From: Candidatus Gottesmanbacteria bacterium UBA6580
GTDB lineage: Bacteria > Patescibacteriota > Microgenomatia > UBA10105 > UBA927
NCBI GenBank assembly: GCA_002433895.1
Contig: DJJA01000003.1
Location: 447,745 to 511,744, forward strand
Reading direction: 5' to 3'
Length of the DNA: 64,000 nucleotides
The stretch's first letter is position 1. Each line of letters opens with the position of its first letter. Below are positions 2-9,538 of the stretch, piece by piece. A model generated the notes under the pieces. That model did no database searches, was not told the origin of the DNA, and worked only from the letters and a program-made list of their open reading frames with translations. Position numbers and translations under genes: made by a program.

Positions 2-358
2 AATACCGAGTGGCGCCGTTCAGAGGAAACCAACCGTCATGGATTGGTTGCGGCAGCAGTCTCACATCTTAATGCGCAGATATTGGAAGACGTAGGAAAT
101 TTACATCCTGCCATCATTGCCGAAACAAACTACCGGTCAGGCGCGCATCATGTGGGATTTGCGAGCGGCATGGAAGTTCCAACCCGCGAAATACAGGGGA
201 GAGCGTTGCCTCAGATGCTTATTCAGAATGTGCGTGTCGGTGATGGACTATCGCCGGACGGCAAAAGAGATTTCACCATGATGCATTTACCAGAGCCGGC
301 AATACAAACCCTCTATGATCCCGCGTCCCGGCGCGTGATCCTGAAAGGAGATATATGA
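2..358 (+). CDS. hypothetical protein, 5' partial (reading frame is open to the window edge; the ORF track starts it at TTG 44)
   Basis: Open frame from position 2 with no upstream stop. The stop overlaps the next start as ATGA. I do not recognise a family from the visible sequence. Confidence 0.4.
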   Translation, partial: NTEWRRSEETNRHGLVAAAVSHLNAQILEDVGNLHPAIIAETNYRSGAHHVGFASGMEVPTREIQGRALPQMLIQNVRVGDGLSPDGKRDFTMMHLPEPAIQTLYDPASRRVILKGDI

Positions 359-1356
359 TCATTGTTTATCCATCACATCATGTGCGTCACCGGCCGCCGT
401 CAGAGATTTTTAATGGCGAAAGTGAGCCGCACGCGGAGGTACCGGAGCGTATCGAGCAAATACACGCGGCGCTACGAGATATGTCAGGGGTGCGGGTAAC
501 GCTTCCGAAACGGTTTCCGCTTTCCTGGATAGAAGCAGTACACGACCGTGCGTATGTTAGTTATGTGGCAGAAGCGGGGAGACTCGCCGGGAGTACCTAT
601 ATGTATCCTTCGGTGTTTCCTTATGCAGGACATGGTGAGGTTTCAAATCCTATTGCATTGCGGGGGCAGTATGCATTTGACTTATATACACCGGTAAGTA
701 GTACCACCTACCAGGCTGCCTGCGGATCCGCGATGGCGGCGCTCACCGCAGCATCACTAGTGCGCCGCGGAGATATCCACGCGTATGCGCTTTGTCGGCC
801 ACCCGGTCATCACGCAGAGCGAAGCCGCATGGGAGGATATTGTTATTTTAACAATGCCGCGATCGCCGCCAATTATTTAAGTCACCGGGGGAAAGTGGTG
901 CTTCTGGATATCGACGTGCATCATGGCAACGGCTCACAGCATATTTTTTATGAGCGCCGTGACGTATTGGTTGTTAATATTCATGCTGACCCGTCGGAAA
1001 AATTCCCTTATTTCAGTGGTTCCGCGCAGGAAACCGGAGTAGGGAAGGGTATTGGATACAATATGAATTTTCCATTAGTGCTCGGTACGACTGATGAAGC
1101 ATATCATCCGGTGTTACAACAGGCGGTACGGCATATTGAGAAATATGCGCCGCAGTATTTAGTGGTTTCTGTAGGTTACGATGCACACATTGACGATCCG
1201 ATTGGAGGGCTCCGTCTGAGCACTGATTATTACCGCCGTATGGCGAGTACCATCGCATCATTGGGGTTGCCTACCGTATTGGTACAGGAAGGGGGGTATA
1301 ATACGGGAAAGCTCGCAACTGTCGCAAAAACATTTGTGAGCGGGTTTATGCAGTAG
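355..1356 (+). CDS. histone deacetylase family protein (acetoin utilization AcuC / acetylpolyamine amidohydrolase-like)
   Basis: Classic HDAC/arginase-fold motifs DIDVHHGNG and GGYCYFNNAAIA, with the PPGHHA pattern. Start overlaps the upstream stop as ATGA. Confidence 0.85.
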   Translation: MIIVYPSHHVRHRPPSEIFNGESEPHAEVPERIEQIHAALRDMSGVRVTLPKRFPLSWIEAVHDRAYVSYVAEAGRLAGSTYMYPSVFPYAGHGEVSNPIALRGQYAFDLYTPVSSTTYQAACGSAMAALTAASLVRRGDIHAYALCRPPGHHAERSRMGGYCYFNNAAIAANYLSHRGKVVLLDIDVHHGNGSQHIFYERRDVLVVNIHADPSEKFPYFSGSAQETGVGKGIGYNMNFPLVLGTTDEAYHPVLQQAVRHIEKYAPQYLVVSVGYDAHIDDPIGGLRLSTDYYRRMASTIASLGLPTVLVQEGGYNTGKLATVAKTFVSGFMQ

Positions 1357-1419
1357 CTGGCAGCTTGGACAACGGGTGATTTATTGTGGAGCGTAAAATA
1401 AGTTAAAATAGGAGGAGTT

Positions 1420-3723
1420 ATGTTTTGGTCAGATCGTATAGCACAGGAAATCATTACATCAGGGGTACACAAGCCGTACTGGGTAGACGATATGTTTACC
1501 CCATCCGGTTTCGCTCATATCGGGTCATTGCGCGGTCCGATTGTCCACGATTTGGTGTATCGCTCACTGATAGATGCAAACGCCAAAACGACATTTACCT
1601 ATGTCTTTAATGATTTTGATCCGGTAGACGGGCTGCCACCTGAGCTGGAACGCATGGCGGGTGAGTTAGGTAAACCGCTTCGTTTGGCAAAATCCCCCGA
1701 AGCCGGATTTACCAGTTTTGCCGAGTATTTCACAAAAGATTTTCAGCGCGTATTGCTTGATTTAGGGATACGGGCGGAGTTCCGTTATTCGTGGGACATG
1801 TATCATGAAGGATTGTTTGACGGAGTAATCCGCGAAGCGCTTGATAACGCGACACGAATTCAGGATATTTATCAGCGGGTCAGTGGAAGTAAAAAACGTG
1901 ATAAGGGATGGTTACCACTGCAGGTGATATGCGAAAAATGCGGCAAATTGGGAACAACCCGTGTACACAACTGGGACGGTGCCACGGTGGAATATACCTG
2001 TGAGCCAAGTATGGTAACCTGGGCAAAAGGGTGCGGATACACCGGGAGAACCAGTCCATTTACCGATAAAGAAAATCCAGCGCATCATCCGGGAAAACTC
2101 CCGTGGAAAGTAGATTGGCCGGCACACTGGAAAGTGCTGGGGGTTACTATCGAAGGCGCGGGTAAAGATCACTCGTCTGCGGGTGGATCACGGGATATCG
2201 CCAAAGAGCTCTGCCGTGAAGTATTTCACATCGATAATCCGTATAATCTTCCCTATGAATTTTTTCTTATCGGGGGCAAAAAAATGTCATCCTCCAAAGG
2301 TTTGGGACTCAAAGGCCGCGATCTTACTAAATTATTGCCGCCTGAAGTTGGCCGGTTTCTTTTTACCCGGACGGATTACCGTCAGGCTATAGAATTTGAT
2401 CCCATGGGTACTATGGCGATCCCGGATTTATTTGATGAATACGACCGGTGTTGGCAGGCGTATATCGACGGGTCGGATGAAAGTCTCGCCAGAGCGTTTG
2501 TGCTTTCGCAGATTACCGCGGTGCCGGAAAAAATCCCCACCTTTTTGCCCAGATTTCGGGATGTTGCGAACTTCGTACAGTTACCCAACGTGGATGTAGT
2601 TTCCAAACTCGAGCAGGTAAAAGGCGCCAAGCTCACCGCAAAAGAAAAAGAAATTATTGCGCTTCGCATGACATACGCGTCTGTCTGGCTTAATAGTTAC
2701 GCGCCTGATGAATACAGATATCAGATATCCCGCAAAACGAAAGATGACTACCAGTTTACTCCCGAACAATGGGCGTTTCTTAACGCACTCGCAGGGTTGT
2801 GGCCGCGGGTAGATGACCCTGAGAAAATGCAGTCAGAACTATTTCTTCTCGCCAAATCTCAGGGGCTAGATACCAAATCCGCATTTAAAGCACTGTATCT
2901 GGTGGTATTGGATAAAGAGCATGGGCCGAGAGCGGGGTGGCTACGCAAACAGTTTCCCGTTGACGTGGTAGTAGAAAGACTAACACTCAACACCCGTAAA
3001 ACCGAAGCGGCACAGAAATCCGCGGTAGCGACTATAGAAAAACCGGATTTTTTTGTGATAGATGCAGCGTTAAAAAAAGCAGTTCCAAGCATCTCGGTGG
3101 GTATAGCGCTTATAAACGGCGTGAACATTCAAAAAACGCACCCGCAGCTGGAGCAGGAAAAACAGGAGTTTCTCGCGGGGCTAAAAGGATTAACTACCGA
3201 GCAACTTAGCACGTATCCCGAGTTAGTAAGTTACCGGAGATTATATAAACAAATGGGTATCGACTGGCATTCGCGGCGTCCATCTCCGGAGGCGTTGTTA
3301 CGGCGGATTGCGGTCGGAAAAGATTTATATACCGTTAATACCTGTGTTGACGCGTACAACCTTATCGTGATGAAGCAACGCATATCCGTGGGCGCTTTTG
3401 ACGCGGACAATGTAGTGTTTCCTACCGTGCTCCGGTACGCAGGCGAGGGGGATGAGATATTGCTTTTAGGTGATAAGGAGCCCACTCAATATACTGCCGG
3501 TGAAATCGCGTATTATGATCGGGTGGGTGGATATAATATCGATTTTAATTACCGTGATGCACAACGTACGATGGTGACAGAGCAAACCAAAAACATCTGG
3601 ATAAATGTGGATGGGGTGCACGATATCACAGCGGAGAGTGTGCAAAAAACGCTGAAAGAATCAGTGGAAATAATAGTGAAATACTGCGGAGGAACCGTAG
3701 TGTTTGAAGGAATTGTCACATGA
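1420..3723 (+). CDS. lysK: class I lysyl-tRNA synthetase with a C-terminal extension of about 250 aa resembling a B3/4 (PheT-type) tRNA-binding/editing domain
   Basis: HIGS-type class I signature (FAHIGSLRGP) and a KMSKS variant (KMSSSKG). The tail carries the B3/4 pattern NTCVDAYNLIVMKQRISVGAFDADNV ... IAYYDRVGGYNIDFNYRD. AGGAGG RBS sits 6 nt upstream. Confidence 0.85.
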   Translation: MFWSDRIAQEIITSGVHKPYWVDDMFTPSGFAHIGSLRGPIVHDLVYRSLIDANAKTTFTYVFNDFDPVDGLPPELERMAGELGKPLRLAKSPEAGFTSFAEYFTKDFQRVLLDLGIRAEFRYSWDMYHEGLFDGVIREALDNATRIQDIYQRVSGSKKRDKGWLPLQVICEKCGKLGTTRVHNWDGATVEYTCEPSMVTWAKGCGYTGRTSPFTDKENPAHHPGKLPWKVDWPAHWKVLGVTIEGAGKDHSSAGGSRDIAKELCREVFHIDNPYNLPYEFFLIGGKKMSSSKGLGLKGRDLTKLLPPEVGRFLFTRTDYRQAIEFDPMGTMAIPDLFDEYDRCWQAYIDGSDESLARAFVLSQITAVPEKIPTFLPRFRDVANFVQLPNVDVVSKLEQVKGAKLTAKEKEIIALRMTYASVWLNSYAPDEYRYQISRKTKDDYQFTPEQWAFLNALAGLWPRVDDPEKMQSELFLLAKSQGLDTKSAFKALYLVVLDKEHGPRAGWLRKQFPVDVVVERLTLNTRKTEAAQKSAVATIEKPDFFVIDAALKKAVPSISVGIALINGVNIQKTHPQLEQEKQEFLAGLKGLTTEQLSTYPELVSYRRLYKQMGIDWHSRRPSPEALLRRIAVGKDLYTVNTCVDAYNLIVMKQRISVGAFDADNVVFPTVLRYAGEGDEILLLGDKEPTQYTAGEIAYYDRVGGYNIDFNYRDAQRTMVTEQTKNIWINVDGVHDITAESVQKTLKESVEIIVKYCGGTVVFEGIVT

Positions 3724-4286
3724 TTACCAAAAATCAGGCAACAGAGTTGCTGCATGAACACACAAAAAACCAAAATCTCCGCCGTCACATGTACGCGGTA
3801 GGTTTCGCAATGCGCGCGCTCGCCGAACGCCTTGGCGGTGACGGCGATATGTGGGAAACGCTGGGGCTTCTCCATGACGCGGATTGGGAAGAAACAAAGG
3901 ACACGCCAAACGAGCACACAAAACACACATTGCGGTGGCTTGCGGATATGGGTGAAACAGACGGACCTATTGTGCACGCGCTTATGTCTCACAACCGCAA
4001 ACATACGGGGCTCGCAGAGCTTGAGGGTAACATGGAGTGGGCGCTCGAAACGGTTGATGAGCTTACGGGTTTTATCGTCGCGGTCGCGTTGATGCGGCCG
4101 GACAAAAAACTGGCAACCGTGGAGTTGTCATCCATCATGAAGAAATGGAAAAACAAAGCGTTTGCTGCAGCCGTCGAGCGGGAACAGATTGCACAGTGCG
4201 AGGAAAAGTTGGGTATACCTCTTCCCGAATTTATTAATCTCACACTAAAAGCCATGCAGGATAACCATGAAGCGCTTGGGTTATAA
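3720..4286 (+). CDS. HD-domain metal-dependent phosphohydrolase
   Basis: HD motif (LLHDADW) and conserved His residues. ATGA-coupled to lysK. Confidence 0.7.
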   Translation: MITKNQATELLHEHTKNQNLRRHMYAVGFAMRALAERLGGDGDMWETLGLLHDADWEETKDTPNEHTKHTLRWLADMGETDGPIVHALMSHNRKHTGLAELEGNMEWALETVDELTGFIVAVALMRPDKKLATVELSSIMKKWKNKAFAAAVEREQIAQCEEKLGIPLPEFINLTLKAMQDNHEALGL

Positions 4287-4901
4287 ATGAAAAAACTTCT
4301 GATCGCCACTACCAATCCCGGAAAGCTAGAAGAAATCCGGCGGTTCCTCGCCGATATGCCACTAGAGCTAGTAAGCCTCAGAGACGTTGGGATTACGGCA
4401 CCAGTTGAGGAAACTGGAGCAACATTTGAAGAGAACGCAGTGTTAAAAGCAAAAACATATGCAGAGGCGTCGGGATTTATAACACTCGCTGACGATGGAG
4501 GGTTTGAAATTGATGCCCTTGGTGGAGAACCGGGGGTGAAGTCTCATCGGTGGGTGCATAGCGATCGGGATAGCACGGATGAAGAACTTATCGCGTATAC
4601 CTTTACCCGTATGAAGGATGTTCCCGAAAAAAAACGTGGCGCGAGGTTGGTCCTGGTGTTAGCGTTGGTGCAGCCGGGTAACCCGGTTGTGACAACCGTT
4701 AAAGAATCTATCCGCGGCATCGTGCCGCTCGAGCCCTCCAAGGTACGGCATGAAGGATTTCCATACCGCTCAATTTTATATTTACCGGAGTTGGGAAAGT
4801 TTTATGATCACGTCAGCTTTACGCCCGAGGAGACGGAGAGGTATAATCATAGAAAGAAAGCGTTGGAAAAATTAAAGCCAATTCTTGCGACGTTATGTTA
4901 G
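4287..4901 (+). CDS. rdgB: non-canonical purine NTP pyrophosphatase (RdgB/Ham1, dITP/XTP pyrophosphatase)
   Basis: N-terminal ATTNPGKLEE motif typical of the Ham1/RdgB family. Confidence 0.85.
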   Translation: MKKLLIATTNPGKLEEIRRFLADMPLELVSLRDVGITAPVEETGATFEENAVLKAKTYAEASGFITLADDGGFEIDALGGEPGVKSHRWVHSDRDSTDEELIAYTFTRMKDVPEKKRGARLVLVLALVQPGNPVVTTVKESIRGIVPLEPSKVRHEGFPYRSILYLPELGKFYDHVSFTPEETERYNHRKKALEKLKPILATLC

Positions 4902-6139
4902 ATATTAAGTTTATCCGGGACAATCTTGAGTTATGTAAAACCGCGGCGATCAATAAAAACCGCGTGGTGGACTGGGACACCCTGCTTACGCTTGACGATA
5001 CCCGCAAGGCGTTAATCCAGAAAACTGAAGTGCTGCGAGCCGAGAGAAACACCATAAGCCGTGAGCGGTCAGATGAAGGAGTAAAGCGCGGTAAGGCAAT
5101 CAAAGACGAACTAAAAAAACTTGAAGACGAATTGCGGAGCACTGAGGAGCAGTTTTCTCTCGCGATGCTTACGGTGCCGAATGTCCCCGACCCAAGTGTA
5201 CCCGTGGGCAAAGATGAAACGGGAAATGTGGAGATCAAAAAATGGGGTGAACCGACTGCGTTTGATTTTACACCCAAAGATCATATTGATTTAGCAAAAT
5301 CCCTCGATCTTATCGATTTTGAACGGGGAGCAAAGGTGGGTGGTTCACGGGCATATTTTTTGAAAAATGAAGCCGCGCAAATAGAAGTGGCACTTATGTT
5401 TTATACGCTGCAGAAGTTAGTGGCCAAAGGATACACGCCGCTTATCGCGCCCAGCTTAGTAAAGGAATTTACATTTGTCGGTAACGGCCAGTTTCCGTGG
5501 GGAAGAGAAGAGGTTTATAGCATCCCCAAAGATGATGTGTTTTTGGCGGGCACTGCTGAGGTGCCGGTGACCGCGTACTATAGCGATGAGATGCTGTACG
5601 AAAAAGATTTGCCCAAGAAATTTGTGGCTTACTCTCCATGTTTCCGCCGTGAAGCGGGAAGCTATGGAAAGGATACGAGAGGGGTTTACCGGTTGCATCA
5701 ATTTAACAAAATTGAACAAGTTATTATCTCGGATGCGGAAACGAGTACATCACTTACTCTACATGAAGAGTTGTTGGCAAACAGTGAAGAAATTCTGCAG
5801 GATCTGAAACTTCCATACCGCGTGCTTCTTATGTGTACCGGTGATATGGGTGAACCGCAGGTAAAAAAATATGACATAGAGACATGGATGCCCGGGCGAA
5901 ACGGCTACGGAGAAACGATGTCGAATTCATTTATGGGGGATTTTCAGTCCAGACGTCTCAAAATCCGGTACAAAGGGAAAGACGGCAATATAAAGTTTTG
6001 CCATACCCTCAATAATACCGCCGTCGCGAGTCCGCGAATTTTAGTGGCGATATTTGAAAACTACCAGCAATCAGACGGGTCTATACGTATTCCTGACGTG
6101 CTCCAACCATTTGTGGGCAAAAAAGAGATACGAAGATGA
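4895..6139 (+). CDS. serS: seryl-tRNA synthetase
   Basis: N-terminus MLDIKFIRDN, a coiled-coil arm and class II catalytic core motifs. 414 aa. Confidence 0.92.
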   Translation: MLDIKFIRDNLELCKTAAINKNRVVDWDTLLTLDDTRKALIQKTEVLRAERNTISRERSDEGVKRGKAIKDELKKLEDELRSTEEQFSLAMLTVPNVPDPSVPVGKDETGNVEIKKWGEPTAFDFTPKDHIDLAKSLDLIDFERGAKVGGSRAYFLKNEAAQIEVALMFYTLQKLVAKGYTPLIAPSLVKEFTFVGNGQFPWGREEVYSIPKDDVFLAGTAEVPVTAYYSDEMLYEKDLPKKFVAYSPCFRREAGSYGKDTRGVYRLHQFNKIEQVIISDAETSTSLTLHEELLANSEEILQDLKLPYRVLLMCTGDMGEPQVKKYDIETWMPGRNGYGETMSNSFMGDFQSRRLKIRYKGKDGNIKFCHTLNNTAVASPRILVAIFENYQQSDGSIRIPDVLQPFVGKKEIRR

Positions 6140-6777
6140 GTTGGCTTTCTTATATTTTCCCCCAAACTGTCGCGGAATTATCATCGCCATACAACCGTTC
6201 TATCCGGATAAATGAAGAAAAGGGGAGGTACAAGCTTCTGGTAAACGGCGCGCGTGAGTCGGGTGCGTATATAGAAGATTTATGGAGATATGCGTTCACG
6301 CACCTTCAATTCCCCGGTAAGAGAAAGATACGAAATATTTTAGTATTGGGAACCGCTGGGGGTACGGTCATTCATGTATTACATGAGTTGTTTCCAAGTT
6401 CTCGAATAACAGGGGTGGATATTGATGCGGTAATGATCAGTGTGGGGGAAACATATTTTGGATTAGCTGAAGTACCTGGTTTACGGCTTATTTGTAATGA
6501 CGCCAATGTATTTGTAAAGGACTATACCGGTAGCAAATTTGATCTTGTGGTCACTGATATTTTTGTCGGTCCTGATATACCGGATTTTGTGGTGACTCCT
6601 GTTTTTCAGCAGCGGGTAAAAAACATATTGCGTAAAAACGGTCTGACAATCATCAATTATCTCCGGCAGCCAGGCTACGAAAAGAAGGCACCGAAGCTTT
6701 TTGCGGTACTATCGTCACTGTATACAAAGGTGAGTTCAGTTGACCGCAATAACAATCGTTTTTTCCTCGCGCAGTAG
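6136..6777 (+). CDS. spermidine synthase-like / class I SAM-dependent methyltransferase-fold protein (short form)
   Basis: VLGTAGG Rossmann motif, an aspartate after the beta-2 strand (GVDID), and DLVVTDIF, matching the polyamine aminopropyltransferase fold. ATGA-coupled to serS. Confidence 0.6.
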   Translation: MSWLSYIFPQTVAELSSPYNRSIRINEEKGRYKLLVNGARESGAYIEDLWRYAFTHLQFPGKRKIRNILVLGTAGGTVIHVLHELFPSSRITGVDIDAVMISVGETYFGLAEVPGLRLICNDANVFVKDYTGSKFDLVVTDIFVGPDIPDFVVTPVFQQRVKNILRKNGLTIINYLRQPGYEKKAPKLFAVLSSLYTKVSSVDRNNNRFFLAQ

Positions 6778-6802
6778 CCATGGATTGTGCTAAAATTGGA
6801 TA

Positions 6803-9538
6803 ATGTTTAAGTTCCTCGGAAAACTTCTTGATAGCAATGAAAAAGAGATCGGTAGACTTCGCGCGCTGGTAGAGCATATTAACGCGCTTGAGCCGGAGAT
6901 AAAAAAAACGAAAGACACCGGATTTGCCAAAAAAACCGCAGAATTTAAAGAACGCCTGAAAGGCGGTCAGACGCTGGATGATCTCTTGCCGGAGGCATAC
7001 GCACTGGTACGTGAAGCAGCGCGGCGCACAATCGGCGAGCGGCATTATGATGTGCAGCTTATGGCCGCTGCCGTTTTGCACCAGGGCAAAGTCGCGGAGC
7101 AAAAAACAGGAGAAGGAAAAACATTGTCAGCCACCCCCGCTTTGTATTTAAACGCGCTTACCGGTAGAGGCGTGCACCTAGTCACCGTCAACGATTATTT
7201 GGCACGGCGGGACGCGGGCTGGATGGGCCAGATATATCATCTGTTAGGGTTGTCTGTTTCAGCGATGATCAGCGAGCAATCGTTTTTGTACGACCCTGAA
7301 TACAATGATCCCATGGCTTCTGACTGGCGGCTGCAACATTTAAAACCGGTAAGCCGAAAAGAAGCGTATGCCGCGGATATCACCTACGGCATAAATTCCG
7401 AATTCGGATTTGATTATCTTCGCGACAACATGGTGAGTGACATGAGCCAGTTGGTGCAGCGGGATTATCACTATGCAATCATCGACGAGGTAGATTCTAT
7501 TCTTATCGATGAGGCGCGGACACCACACATTATATCTGCTCCAGCCGCCGAAGCCACGAGTAAATATTACGATTACGCAAAGATGGTAGACAAGCTGACC
7601 GGCGAAACCGACTACGTCATCGACGAAAAACTCCGTACCGCCCATCTTACCGACCACGGCATACTCAAGGTCGAAAAAATGCTGGGACTTGGTAATATCT
7701 ATGAAACGAGCTTCGAAACCGTTCATCATATAGAAGCAGCGCTCAAAGCGCGCGCGCTGTTTCACCGCGAAAAAGAATACATCGTCAAAGACGGTCAGGT
7801 GGTGATCGTCGATGAGTTTACCGGGAGATTGCTTACTGGCCGGCGGTTTAGTGAAGGCATTCATCAGGCGATAGAAGCCAAAGAAGGGGTAGCGATACAG
7901 CAGGAAAGTAAGACGCTCGCGACCGTCAGTTTACAGAATTATTTCAGAATGTACGAAAAGCTTGCCGGTATGACGGGTACCGCGTCCACGGAGGCTGAGG
8001 AGTTTAAGAAAATATATAACCTGGATGTTGTTGTTATGCCAACGCACAAAGCACAGGTGCGCGAAGACTTTTCTGACATGGTCTATAAAACGACCAGAGC
8101 CAAGTATACCGCGGTGGTAAACGACATTATCGAGCACCATAAGAAAGGACAGCCGGTGCTGGTGGGCACGACATCTATTGATAAAAATGACGTTATTAGT
8201 GAGGCACTGAAACGAAAAGGTATTCCCCACGCTGTGCTGAACGCGAAAAATCATCTGAAAGAAGCCATGATTATTTCAGACGCAGGTAAATTGGGCGCCG
8301 TGACCGTCGCTACCAATATGGCGGGGCGGGGAGTCGATATTATATTGGGCGGACCCAAAAAAGAAAAATGGGAATACGACAACGAGAAAGAATGGGAAAA
8401 AGATCTGGCGGCATGGAAAAAAAGCCATGATGAGGTGCTTGCAGTCGGCGGACTTTATGTTATCGGCACAGAGCGGCATGAATCACGCCGGATAGACAAT
8501 CAGTTGCGCGGCCGAAGTGGCAGGCAGGGTGATCCGGGAGCGAGTAGGTTTTATGTATCACTCGAAGACGACATCATGCGGCTTTTCGGCGGTGATCAGG
8601 TATCCCGCCTTATGGATGTGTTTAAACTACCTGAAGATGTGCCACTGGAGCACCCGATGGTGTCGCGCGCGTTGGAGCAGGCACAGGTGAAAGTAGAAGG
8701 ATTTCATTTTGATAACCGGAAGCATCTCGTGGAGTATGACGATGTATTAAATAAACACCGGGAGATAGTGTATCGGAGGCGCCGAAAAATCCTGGAAGGG
8801 GAAAGTCAAAAAGAAGCGATACTCCAGAAGATTGGCAACGAGATAGCAAACTTCGTAAACGTGTTTAGTAGTGATGCAGGTAACATTGACCGGCAAAAAA
8901 TCGCTTCAGAATTTACGGCCATCATCCCATTTGATCCGGCAAGCGTTGAACAGCTCCTTAAGCAGCTTCAGCAACTGCATACAGCCGAAGACATTACCGA
9001 GTTCCTCACCAAAATTGCGGGGGATGTATACGCACAGCGGGAGAAACAACTTTCGGAAGAGGTGATGCGTCAGGTGGAGCGTTGGGTGAGCTTGCAGGTG
9101 ATTGATAATTTGTGGATGGATCATCTGGATGCAATCGACGATTTACGGGAAGGTATAGGGCTTCGGGGATATGGACAGCGCGATCCGCTTATTGAATATA
9201 AGAATGAGGCATTTTCCATGTTTGAACGGTTACTTGGTGGCATTGATACGGAAATTGCGCACCGCATTTTTAAAGTACAGGTGCAACTTTCGCCAAATCA
9301 GCAGGCCGGCCAGCAACTCAACCAAACCGCAGTAAATGCCCCGGTTGCGAGCGCGCTGGAATCGCCGTTAGCGCAAGCGGCAAAACGCATGCAGACTAAC
9401 GCGCAGTCTTCTGCAGTGTCACAAGTGCCAAAGGTATCCGCTGATGCCAAGATAGGGCGCAATGATCCGTGTCCCTGTGGTTCTGGATTGAAATATAAAA
9501 AATGCGGACTCATCAACGCGCCGCAACATAAGAAATAA
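6803..9538 (+). CDS. secA: preprotein translocase ATPase SecA
   Basis: N-terminus and DEAD-like motor motifs. C-terminal zinc-binding tail CPCGSGLKYKKC. 911 aa. Confidence 0.95.
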   Translation: MFKFLGKLLDSNEKEIGRLRALVEHINALEPEIKKTKDTGFAKKTAEFKERLKGGQTLDDLLPEAYALVREAARRTIGERHYDVQLMAAAVLHQGKVAEQKTGEGKTLSATPALYLNALTGRGVHLVTVNDYLARRDAGWMGQIYHLLGLSVSAMISEQSFLYDPEYNDPMASDWRLQHLKPVSRKEAYAADITYGINSEFGFDYLRDNMVSDMSQLVQRDYHYAIIDEVDSILIDEARTPHIISAPAAEATSKYYDYAKMVDKLTGETDYVIDEKLRTAHLTDHGILKVEKMLGLGNIYETSFETVHHIEAALKARALFHREKEYIVKDGQVVIVDEFTGRLLTGRRFSEGIHQAIEAKEGVAIQQESKTLATVSLQNYFRMYEKLAGMTGTASTEAEEFKKIYNLDVVVMPTHKAQVREDFSDMVYKTTRAKYTAVVNDIIEHHKKGQPVLVGTTSIDKNDVISEALKRKGIPHAVLNAKNHLKEAMIISDAGKLGAVTVATNMAGRGVDIILGGPKKEKWEYDNEKEWEKDLAAWKKSHDEVLAVGGLYVIGTERHESRRIDNQLRGRSGRQGDPGASRFYVSLEDDIMRLFGGDQVSRLMDVFKLPEDVPLEHPMVSRALEQAQVKVEGFHFDNRKHLVEYDDVLNKHREIVYRRRRKILEGESQKEAILQKIGNEIANFVNVFSSDAGNIDRQKIASEFTAIIPFDPASVEQLLKQLQQLHTAEDITEFLTKIAGDVYAQREKQLSEEVMRQVERWVSLQVIDNLWMDHLDAIDDLREGIGLRGYGQRDPLIEYKNEAFSMFERLLGGIDTEIAHRIFKVQVQLSPNQQAGQQLNQTAVNAPVASALESPLAQAAKRMQTNAQSSAVSQVPKVSADAKIGRNDPCPCGSGLKYKKCGLINAPQHKK

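Follow-up and report, generated by a model that had tools for sequence, protein, structure and literature searches.

A class I lysyl-tRNA synthetase with a C-terminal CtdA-like B3/4 module in Candidatus Gottesmanbacteria: a candidate tethered editing domain

The window considered here is the whole 64,000-nucleotide stretch of contig DJJA01000003.1 from Candidatus Gottesmanbacteria bacterium UBA6580. One of its genes encodes a class I lysyl-tRNA synthetase (LysRS) whose chain continues, through a flexible linker, into a B3/4 module of the CtdA type. CtdA is a characterised free-standing trans-editing enzyme that hydrolyses canavanyl-tRNA(Arg) (PMC10018355; PMC12449066). The fused architecture, the fold of the module and its pocket are conserved, and modules of this kind have been linked repeatedly and independently to both classes of LysRS.

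Architecture of the LysRS–B3/4 protein

The gene lies on the forward strand in a block (355–9538) that encodes a histone-deacetylase-family protein, LysRS–B3/4, an HD-domain protein, a Ham1/RdgB-type NTP pyrophosphatase, seryl-tRNA synthetase (SerRS), a spermidine-synthase-like methyltransferase and SecA. Several of these neighbours overlap by a few bases, and this housekeeping block is kept in many Microgenomates loci. The ATG of the LysRS–B3/4 open reading frame is preceded by a sequence resembling a ribosome-binding site, AGGAGGAG, and its TGA overlaps the ATG of the HD gene as ATGA. Both GC content and skew are even over the gene. The positions of its features are collected in Table 1.

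Judged from a full-length profile match and from both class I signatures, residues 1–522 are a genuine class I LysRS. The NCBIfam family TIGR00467 (lysS_arch) places these residues on profile positions 1–512 of 515 (322.7 bits against a cut-off of 147.55), and Pfam tRNA-synt_1f (PF01921) covers residues 2–357 (E = 3.6e-81; 273 bits against 27). In 75 homologues, residues His33, Gly35 and Ser36 of the HIGS motif are invariant or nearly so, and Lys288, Met289, Ser292, Lys293 and Gly294 of KMSSSKG are invariant. The LysRS body has high predicted local distance difference test (pLDDT) scores in a full-length AlphaFold2 model, with low values at the KMSSS loop, as expected of a mobile KMSKS loop. 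The window protein thus resembles a canonical class I LysRS of the archaeal type (TIGR00467, ~520 residues) over its full length and in both signatures, but has 245 additional residues.

Those additional residues contain a match to Pfam B3_4 (PF03483) at residues 605–748 (E = 5.2e-21; 75.4 bits against a gathering threshold of 29.3). The initial annotation, made from the sequence alone, had described a 767-residue class I LysRS with HIGS and KMSSSKG signatures and a C-terminal B3/4 domain, and this description is upheld: all three families score above their cut-offs, both signatures are present, and so are the two B3/4 peptide stretches that it quoted. Its start for the extension, at nucleotide ~2980, corresponds to the start of the linker, whereas the module itself begins at about nucleotide 3037 (residue 540).

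Conservation is lowest in the linker, where mean column identity is 0.38. The pLDDT of the linker falls below 50 at residues 527–534 in the full-length model and is ~52–69 in a model of the C-terminal domain. Both domains are confidently predicted in the full-length model (predicted template modelling score, pTM, 0.65), but their relative geometry is not. No second LysRS, arginyl-tRNA synthetase (ArgRS) or other B3/4 copy is present within the 64-kb window, and ARAGORN detected no tRNA or tmRNA gene in it. The fused enzyme is presumably the working LysRS of the cell.

Table 1. Coordinates of the LysRS–B3/4 gene, its domains and pocket residues, and the adjoining HD gene.
Feature	Residues	Nucleotides in window	Strand	Basis or remark
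Whole gene: class I LysRS, linker and CtdA-like B3/4 module	767 aa + stop	1420..3723	+	Uninterrupted open reading frame; architecture shared by 62 class I loci
Class I LysRS body	1-522	1420..2985	+	TIGR00467, PF01921
Rossmann catalytic domain	2-357	1423-2490	+	Rest of body is the helical anticodon-binding part
HIGH-type signature, HIGS	33-36	1516..1527	+	Read from sequence
KMSKS-type signature, KMSSS	288-292	2281..2295	+	Read from sequence; KMSSSKG is 288-294
Flexible linker (~17 aa)	~523-539	2986..3036	+	Low pLDDT, low conservation
CtdA-like B3/4 module (228 aa)	540-767	3037..3720	+	Pfam core 605-748 = nucleotides 3232-3663
N647 (CtdA N105, essential there; PheRS N254)	647	3358..3360	+	Alignment
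G658 (CtdA G116, kept) and F660 (CtdA E118, changed)	658, 660	3391..3399	+	Alignment; motif SVGAFD
N706 (CtdA C166) and D713 (CtdA Q173)	706, 713	3535..3558	+	Alignment; motif GGYNIDFNYRD
N729 (CtdA I189), sixth pocket position	729	3604..3606	+	Alignment
HD-domain gene	188 aa	3720..4286	+	Open reading frame; PF01966, E = 8e-6; overlaps LysRS stop by 4 nucleotides

The CtdA-like module and its aminoacyl pocket

The C-terminal 249 residues match CtdA of Pseudomonas canavaninivorans (PDB 9f7e; E = 4e-4) and of Salmonella (9mkl; E = 4e-3), at an identity of only ~16–19%. The sequence match of the module to PheT, the β subunit of phenylalanyl-tRNA synthetase (PheRS), is insignificant (E = 0.6), and with 11.7 bits against a TIGR00472 cut-off of 402 the module is not of the PheT family. 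An AlphaFold2 model of the module, built from 75 homologues, is confident (pLDDT 92.4, pTM 0.88) apart from its first ~20 residues, which are poorly ordered. Foldseek searches with this model return CtdA first (E = 1e-15, template modelling score 0.74–0.81 over ~232 columns) and PheRS β second (E = 1e-10). The CtdA-type B3/4 fold spans the whole module, including the helical part that is specific to CtdA, whereas the PheRS-specific helices of the PheT B3/4 domain are absent, as are domains B1, B2 and B5.

The initial annotation had likened the domain both to stand-alone proteins of the COG3382 type and to PheT. The former likeness is borne out, CtdA being the best match of the sequence and of the predicted structure; of the latter, only the common B3/4 fold stands. 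The PheT editing residues R244, Y255, H265, F267, A312, G318 and E334 (E. coli numbering) are not conserved in the module. From the published list of PheRS editing-site residues (PMC12449066) and the alignment, a single asparagine, N254, is shared. Through their CtdA correspondences, PheRS H265 aligns with glycine and G318 with aspartate. A bulky residue at G318 blocks tyrosine in PheRS, and CtdA cannot substitute for PheRS editing (PMC12449066). The insignificant sequence match, the TIGR00472 score and the solitary shared asparagine together rule out editing of the PheT type.

In Salmonella CtdA, the aminoacyl pocket is lined by N105, G116, E118, C166, Q173 and I189. The mutations N105A, G116H, G116W and Q173G inactivate the enzyme; residue C166 tunes specificity, and the positions of C166 and Q173 face the side chain of the substrate and set specificity (PMC12449066). 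The equivalent residues of the window module read NGFNDN, against NGECQI in CtdA. The scaffold asparagine and glycine, both essential in CtdA, are kept, but the four specificity residues are changed (E118F, C166N, Q173D and I189N), so the editing-site conservation that the initial annotation had raised holds for part of the CtdA site and fails for the PheRS set. As four of the six positions differ from CtdA, specificity for neither Tyr-tRNA(Phe) nor canavanyl-tRNA(Arg) can be transferred to the module.

None of the six pocket positions varies among 75 class I fusions, whose overall identity is 53–90%. The six are likewise invariant at 80 of the 80 loci of a genome survey (described below), where the uniformity of N706 and D713 is partly imposed by the search pattern. 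Residues 601–745 of the module are as conserved as the active-site segments of LysRS. This pattern of conservation fits a functional ligand pocket with a specificity other than that of CtdA. From the nature of the residues, we infer that a polar or cationic side chain like that of lysine would be well accommodated by D713, N706 and N729 and the aromatic wall that position 660 provides.

Other differences separate the module from CtdA. CtdA is a free-standing protein of ~230 residues that acts in trans on canavanyl-tRNA(Arg), whereas the window module is covalently fused to a synthetase, and that synthetase is LysRS rather than ArgRS. CtdA genes have been reported under guanidine riboswitches (PMC11477304, PMC3766115); no such context is visible at the window locus. 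A second clade, CtdA-2, occurs in Chloroflexi, Bacillota and archaea and is without C166, and its specificity has been left explicitly open (PMC12449066). The window module may belong to this clade or lie near it, and class I fusions in Anaerolineae and Aggregatilineales are suggestive of such a placement.

Distribution of the module and exchange of its synthetase partner

A phmmer search with the module against 1.84 billion representative sequences returned 1983 relatives, 635 of them at E ≤ 1e-10, and the best 150 were classified. Within these best 150 of 1983, 24 modules are C-terminal to class I LysRS and 15 are fused to class II LysRS, mostly C-terminally (P0206 and P0207 are N-terminal). 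A further six are N-terminal to ArgRS (P0197, P0203, P0217, P0250, P0269 and P0270), with two tandem B3/4 copies in P0269. The others are 99 free-standing proteins of ~220–240 residues, some of them probably gene fragments, and six proteins longer than 270 residues without a synthetase match. P0264 is probably a fragment of an ArgRS fusion, and at least three of four relatives with short N-terminal extensions are probably truncated class I fusions. Another relative, P0257 (409 residues), combines ankyrin repeats with a B3/4 domain whose pocket is of the Tyr/Asp type.

The class II bodies that were tested all (10/10) exceed the TIGR00499 (lysS_bact) cut-off, and module identity to the window protein in class II fusions reaches 57–70%. 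A neighbour-joining tree mixes domains from class I and class II fusions within a single clade. Class II fusion P0126, for instance, is sister to class I fusion P0128, and the P0126 module, at 57% identity, is closer to that of the window than many class I-fused modules are. Some class II LysRS–B3/4 proteins also carry a C-terminal DUF2000 domain (PF09391, E = 1e-27 to 1e-35), as in P0134, L077 (4664–5131) and L078 (4631–5119).

From these sequences, pocket type appears largely to track the fusion partner. All six ArgRS-fused domains have NGECEV, NGECEI or NGETQI pockets and cluster with CtdA, whereas 31 of the 35 LysRS-fused domains sampled, class I and class II, follow the pattern N[GA][FY]xDx. 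Phenylalanine or tyrosine occupies the E118 position in most LysRS-linked domains sampled, and the exact NGFNDN pocket occurs in nine class I domains (eight representatives and the window protein) and in six class II representatives. An ArgRS-fused B3/4 domain with a canavanine-type pocket would be a cis version of CtdA editing; ArgRS–B3/4 fusions are not mentioned in the CtdA papers examined.

The class I fusion was also sought among 5.8 billion proteins. At least 120 clusters were listed, down to 53% identity, nearly all of ~740–780 residues and all with both PF01921 and PF03483; the named clusters among those listed are Gottesmanbacteria, Levybacteria or 'Patescibacteria group'. A genome survey, in which one genome per GTDB species was scanned with a module profile and a peptide pattern that includes pocket positions N706 and D713, yielded 80 loci. 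The LysRS body and module share one open frame at 76 of these (61 class I, 15 class II), and two loci are cut by contig ends, one of which, L049, retains a class I remnant. At L069 (3980–4684) a free-standing module of 234 residues has the NGFNDN pocket and no LysRS within 4 kb upstream, and at L066 (3947–4603) the module has a 218-residue frame of its own immediately after a class I LysRS; either a genuine split or a frameshift could account for this.

The titles of the surveyed loci name Gottesman-, Levy-, Roizman-, Woese- and Dojkabacteria, CPR3 and Microgenomates. Of the relatives, Gottesmanbacteria UBA5942 (L001) is the closest, with 85–94% protein identity over six matched segments. Anaerolineae and Aggregatilineales (Chloroflexota), as well as Gracilibacteria, have more distant class I fusions. 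The initial annotation had taken the fusion for an unusual arrangement and had proposed a survey of relatives. On that survey, LysRS–B3/4 is instead what Microgenomates have as a rule, and a counterpart with class II LysRS exists besides. Many metagenome-assembled genome records that carry this Patescibacteria-type block are titled 'uncultured Gammaproteobacteria' (L005, L006, L008–L011 and others), and a small number go under Methylomirabilota, Eisenbacteria, Vitreimonas or Deltaproteobacteria. Such titles probably reflect placeholder taxonomy, mislabelling or contamination of the bins.

One locus, L008 (CAZKLT010000003.1), links the two types of fusion directly. Its genes for the deacetylase, LysRS–B3/4, HD protein, Ham1 and SerRS are ordered as in the window (355–6139), but its LysRS body is of class II whereas that of the window is of class I. 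In a BLASTP comparison of the L008 and window proteins, real similarity begins at residue 540 ('KPDFFVID' against 'KPSHFSID'). Identity to the window is 67% for the module, 81% for the HD protein and 77% for SerRS. Class I relatives behave alike, with SerRS and module identities of 76% and 67% (L009) and of 76% and 74% (L003). As the divergence of the L008 module fits that of its SerRS, the module appears to have tracked the organism while the body changed class. From sequence comparison, L008 looks like an in-place exchange of the synthetase body in which the module was kept. Since the class I and class II bodies have nothing in common but their substrates, the role of the module would concern lysine and tRNA(Lys).

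The genomic surroundings of free-standing relatives were read in a small sample, in which P0160, P0164, P0190 and P0256 lie on short contigs and are uninformative. P0235 (pocket NGFSDV) is encoded 68 nucleotides downstream of a class II lysS gene (TIGR00499, 586 bits), in the order saccharopine dehydrogenase, lysS, P0235, then a GNAT acetyltransferase and a CHAT protease. Thirteen contigs were read for P0235, and in the three places shown (L087–L089) lysS is directly upstream each time. P0182 (L083) adjoins an enzyme that resembles BesD, a lysine 4-chlorinase, and is of the Fe/2-oxoglutarate type, while P0198 (L085/L086), on an 8.2-Mb contig, is flanked by acetyltransferases. These free-standing relatives carry a Phe/Asp pocket, and the protease is of the CHAT/C25 type. 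Such clusters may be resistance islands against lysine analogues, or producer-immunity islands.

Proposed function and alternative explanations

It is proposed, with a probability of roughly 0.6, that the C-terminal module is a tethered post-transfer editing module that hydrolyses tRNA(Lys) charged with a lysine analogue. The LysRS body would charge tRNA(Lys), and if a near-cognate basic amino acid were loaded, the 3′ end of the tRNA would be captured by the tethered module, either before the tRNA leaves the enzyme or immediately after its release. The site around Asn647 and Gly658 would then hydrolyse the ester linkage, like the active sites of CtdA and of the editing domain in PheRS, while the pocket formed by Phe660, Asn706, Asp713 and Asn729 would select the wrong side chain and reject lysine. 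The module would act as a loosely tethered resampling deacylase rather than as a rigidly docked CCA-flip site, because the linker is predicted to be disordered, the full-length model reaches a pTM of only 0.65, and the module occurs C-terminally on two unrelated scaffolds, N-terminally in other fusions, and free-standing. Going by misactivation in LysRS and by natural antimetabolites, candidates for the noncognate amino acid are thialysine (S-2-aminoethylcysteine, AEC), 4-oxalysine, halogenated or hydroxylated lysines, ornithine, and arginine or homoarginine. The toxicity of AEC acts through LysRS (PMC11477304).

More broadly, there is an even chance that a lysine-dedicated branch of the CtdA/B3-4 family edits both LysRS classes against a natural antimetabolite, as a portable cassette of which the ArgRS versions would be the arginine counterpart. 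The initial annotation had suggested a cis-acting proof-reading or tRNA-handling role; proof-reading is the best-supported reading of the module, while editing itself stays at the level of a proposal.

Several points weigh against an editing function directed at tRNA(Lys). We infer hydrolysis, tRNA specificity and amino acid substrate alike from sequence comparison, and with four of six CtdA pocket residues replaced, activity would not simply carry over from CtdA. The uniformity of N706 and D713 at the 80 loci owes something to the search pattern, as stated above. The class II fusions P0206, P0207 and P0254 carry a CtdA-like NG[ED]CEV pocket, and therefore pocket type cannot always be read from the fusion partner. 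A BesD-like neighbour was seen once, and its 98 bits fall short of the equivalog cut-off of 450. Thialysine is a weaker candidate in that class I LysRS discriminates well against it. Finally, the view is that of the 64-kb window, so the fused enzyme may not be the sole LysRS, and PheT may or may not retain an editing domain of its own.

To our knowledge, a post-transfer editing domain has yet to be described for any LysRS, whether class I or class II. No paper linking LysRS with a B3/4 or CtdA domain, or reporting the ArgRS and class II LysRS counterparts, was found in the full text of 7.7 million PMC papers or in bioRxiv, and term searches within the CtdA papers gave no mention of synthetase fusions or of LysRS. 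The literature search returned nothing on analogue discrimination by LysRS1 and LysRS2, and a deacylase-mining paper (Nat Chem 2026) deals with AlaX, not with B3/4. The architecture is already present in public databases, labelled plainly 'lysine--tRNA ligase'. Comparable logic is seen in the INS domain of prolyl-tRNA synthetase with YbaK/ProXp, and in alanyl- and threonyl-tRNA synthetases with AlaX/ThrRS-ed, where a deacylase fold is found free-standing and also fused to the very synthetase that it proof-reads. Those editing systems belong to a different fold family, and, unlike them, B3/4 has joined two non-homologous synthetases of the same specificity, as well as ArgRS with another pocket. 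What is known, then, is the deacylase fold and the cis/trans logic of editing; what is new is the attachment to LysRS and the pocket.

LysRS is usually listed without a separate editing domain, a picture that a conserved deacylase module would change; if the proposal is true, LysRS would gain its first known editing module. The occurrence of one module on two unrelated LysRS classes is a natural experiment, and it points to a role tied to lysine in a branch of the CtdA family that has yet to be characterised. Locus L008 provides a clean example of module retention during replacement of class I by class II at one locus. For candidate-phyla bacteria that scavenge amino acids, the fusion hints at a specific fidelity problem to be solved, and the free-standing relatives suggest a handle for finding producers of lysine antimetabolites and the corresponding resistance.

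Alternatively, hydrolysis may have been lost and the module may raise the affinity of LysRS for tRNA(Lys) by binding or chaperoning it, in the manner of the RNA-binding appendages of other synthetases and of the B3/4-fold domains in TilS and LRRC47. Such a non-catalytic appendage is unlikely. The residues at the CtdA pocket positions, including the two essential in CtdA, are invariant over 75–80 divergent fusions, which is hard to explain by surface binding, and an active deacylase is by far the nearest relative in structure. The company of GNAT acetyltransferases and lysS around free-standing relatives also resembles a detoxification context.

It is rather improbable that the module is an active deacylase for another tRNA in trans, with the fusion serving merely for co-expression. 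Its targets could be canavanyl- or homoarginyl-tRNA(Arg), or Tyr-tRNA(Phe), in compensation for a degenerate PheRS editing site. CtdA itself is free-standing and acts in trans (PMC10018355, PMC12449066), P0206, P0207 and P0254 indicate that fusion to LysRS does not by itself dictate a Lys-linked specificity, and the PheT and ArgRS of this genome are outside the data examined. However, ArgRS-fused domains keep the CtdA pocket, whereas the window type has a distinct, invariant one, and the NGFNDN module is kept when the LysRS class changes, as would be expected if what counts is lysine or tRNA(Lys), which are all that the two bodies have in common. Tyr-tRNA(Phe) is further disfavoured by loss of the PheRS editing residues save one asparagine and by the aspartate at the G318 position.

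It appears highly improbable that the module is a regulator or hydrolase whose target is the cognate product or some other lysyl ester. Examples would be controlled deacylation of Lys-tRNA(Lys), hydrolysis of lysyl-adenylate, or use of a lysyl donor outside translation. LysRS paralogues are known in non-translational lysyl transfer, and LysX and EpmA/GenX occur as secondary matches; the recurrent partners HD hydrolase and DUF2000, fused or adjacent, could also be read in this way. Yet the LysRS bodies score as bona fide lysS above equivalog cut-offs, the genes sit in a housekeeping block with SerRS and SecA, and cis hydrolysis of the cognate product would be a futile cycle, which CtdA avoids.

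An assembly artefact, in which frameshift, read-through or chimeric assembly joined two genes, was among the initial concerns and, notwithstanding the separate frame at L066 and the free module at L069, has a vanishingly small probability, because frameshift and mis-join are excluded by one continuous frame in 76 of 80 independent genomes and by at least 120 listed clusters of ~760 residues, from many projects, that share both Pfam domains, and composition is uniform and the module under strong purifying selection.

The product of the adjoining HD gene has no significant single-sequence match in the PDB. Its profile matches YqeK-type symmetrical diadenosine tetraphosphate (Ap4A) hydrolases weakly (8jja, E = 9e-4, HD motif only). 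LysRS is a classical source of Ap4A, and a functional link between the HD protein and LysRS through this nucleotide is conceivable. The HD gene is a recurrent partner and possibly part of the system: a homologue lies within ~3 kb downstream of LysRS–B3/4 at ~27 of the 80 loci (L001, L008 and L046 among them), including 12 of the 15 class II fusions. At least four proteins continue in frame from the module into the HD domain: P0062, L035 and L054 of class I, and P0141 of class II.

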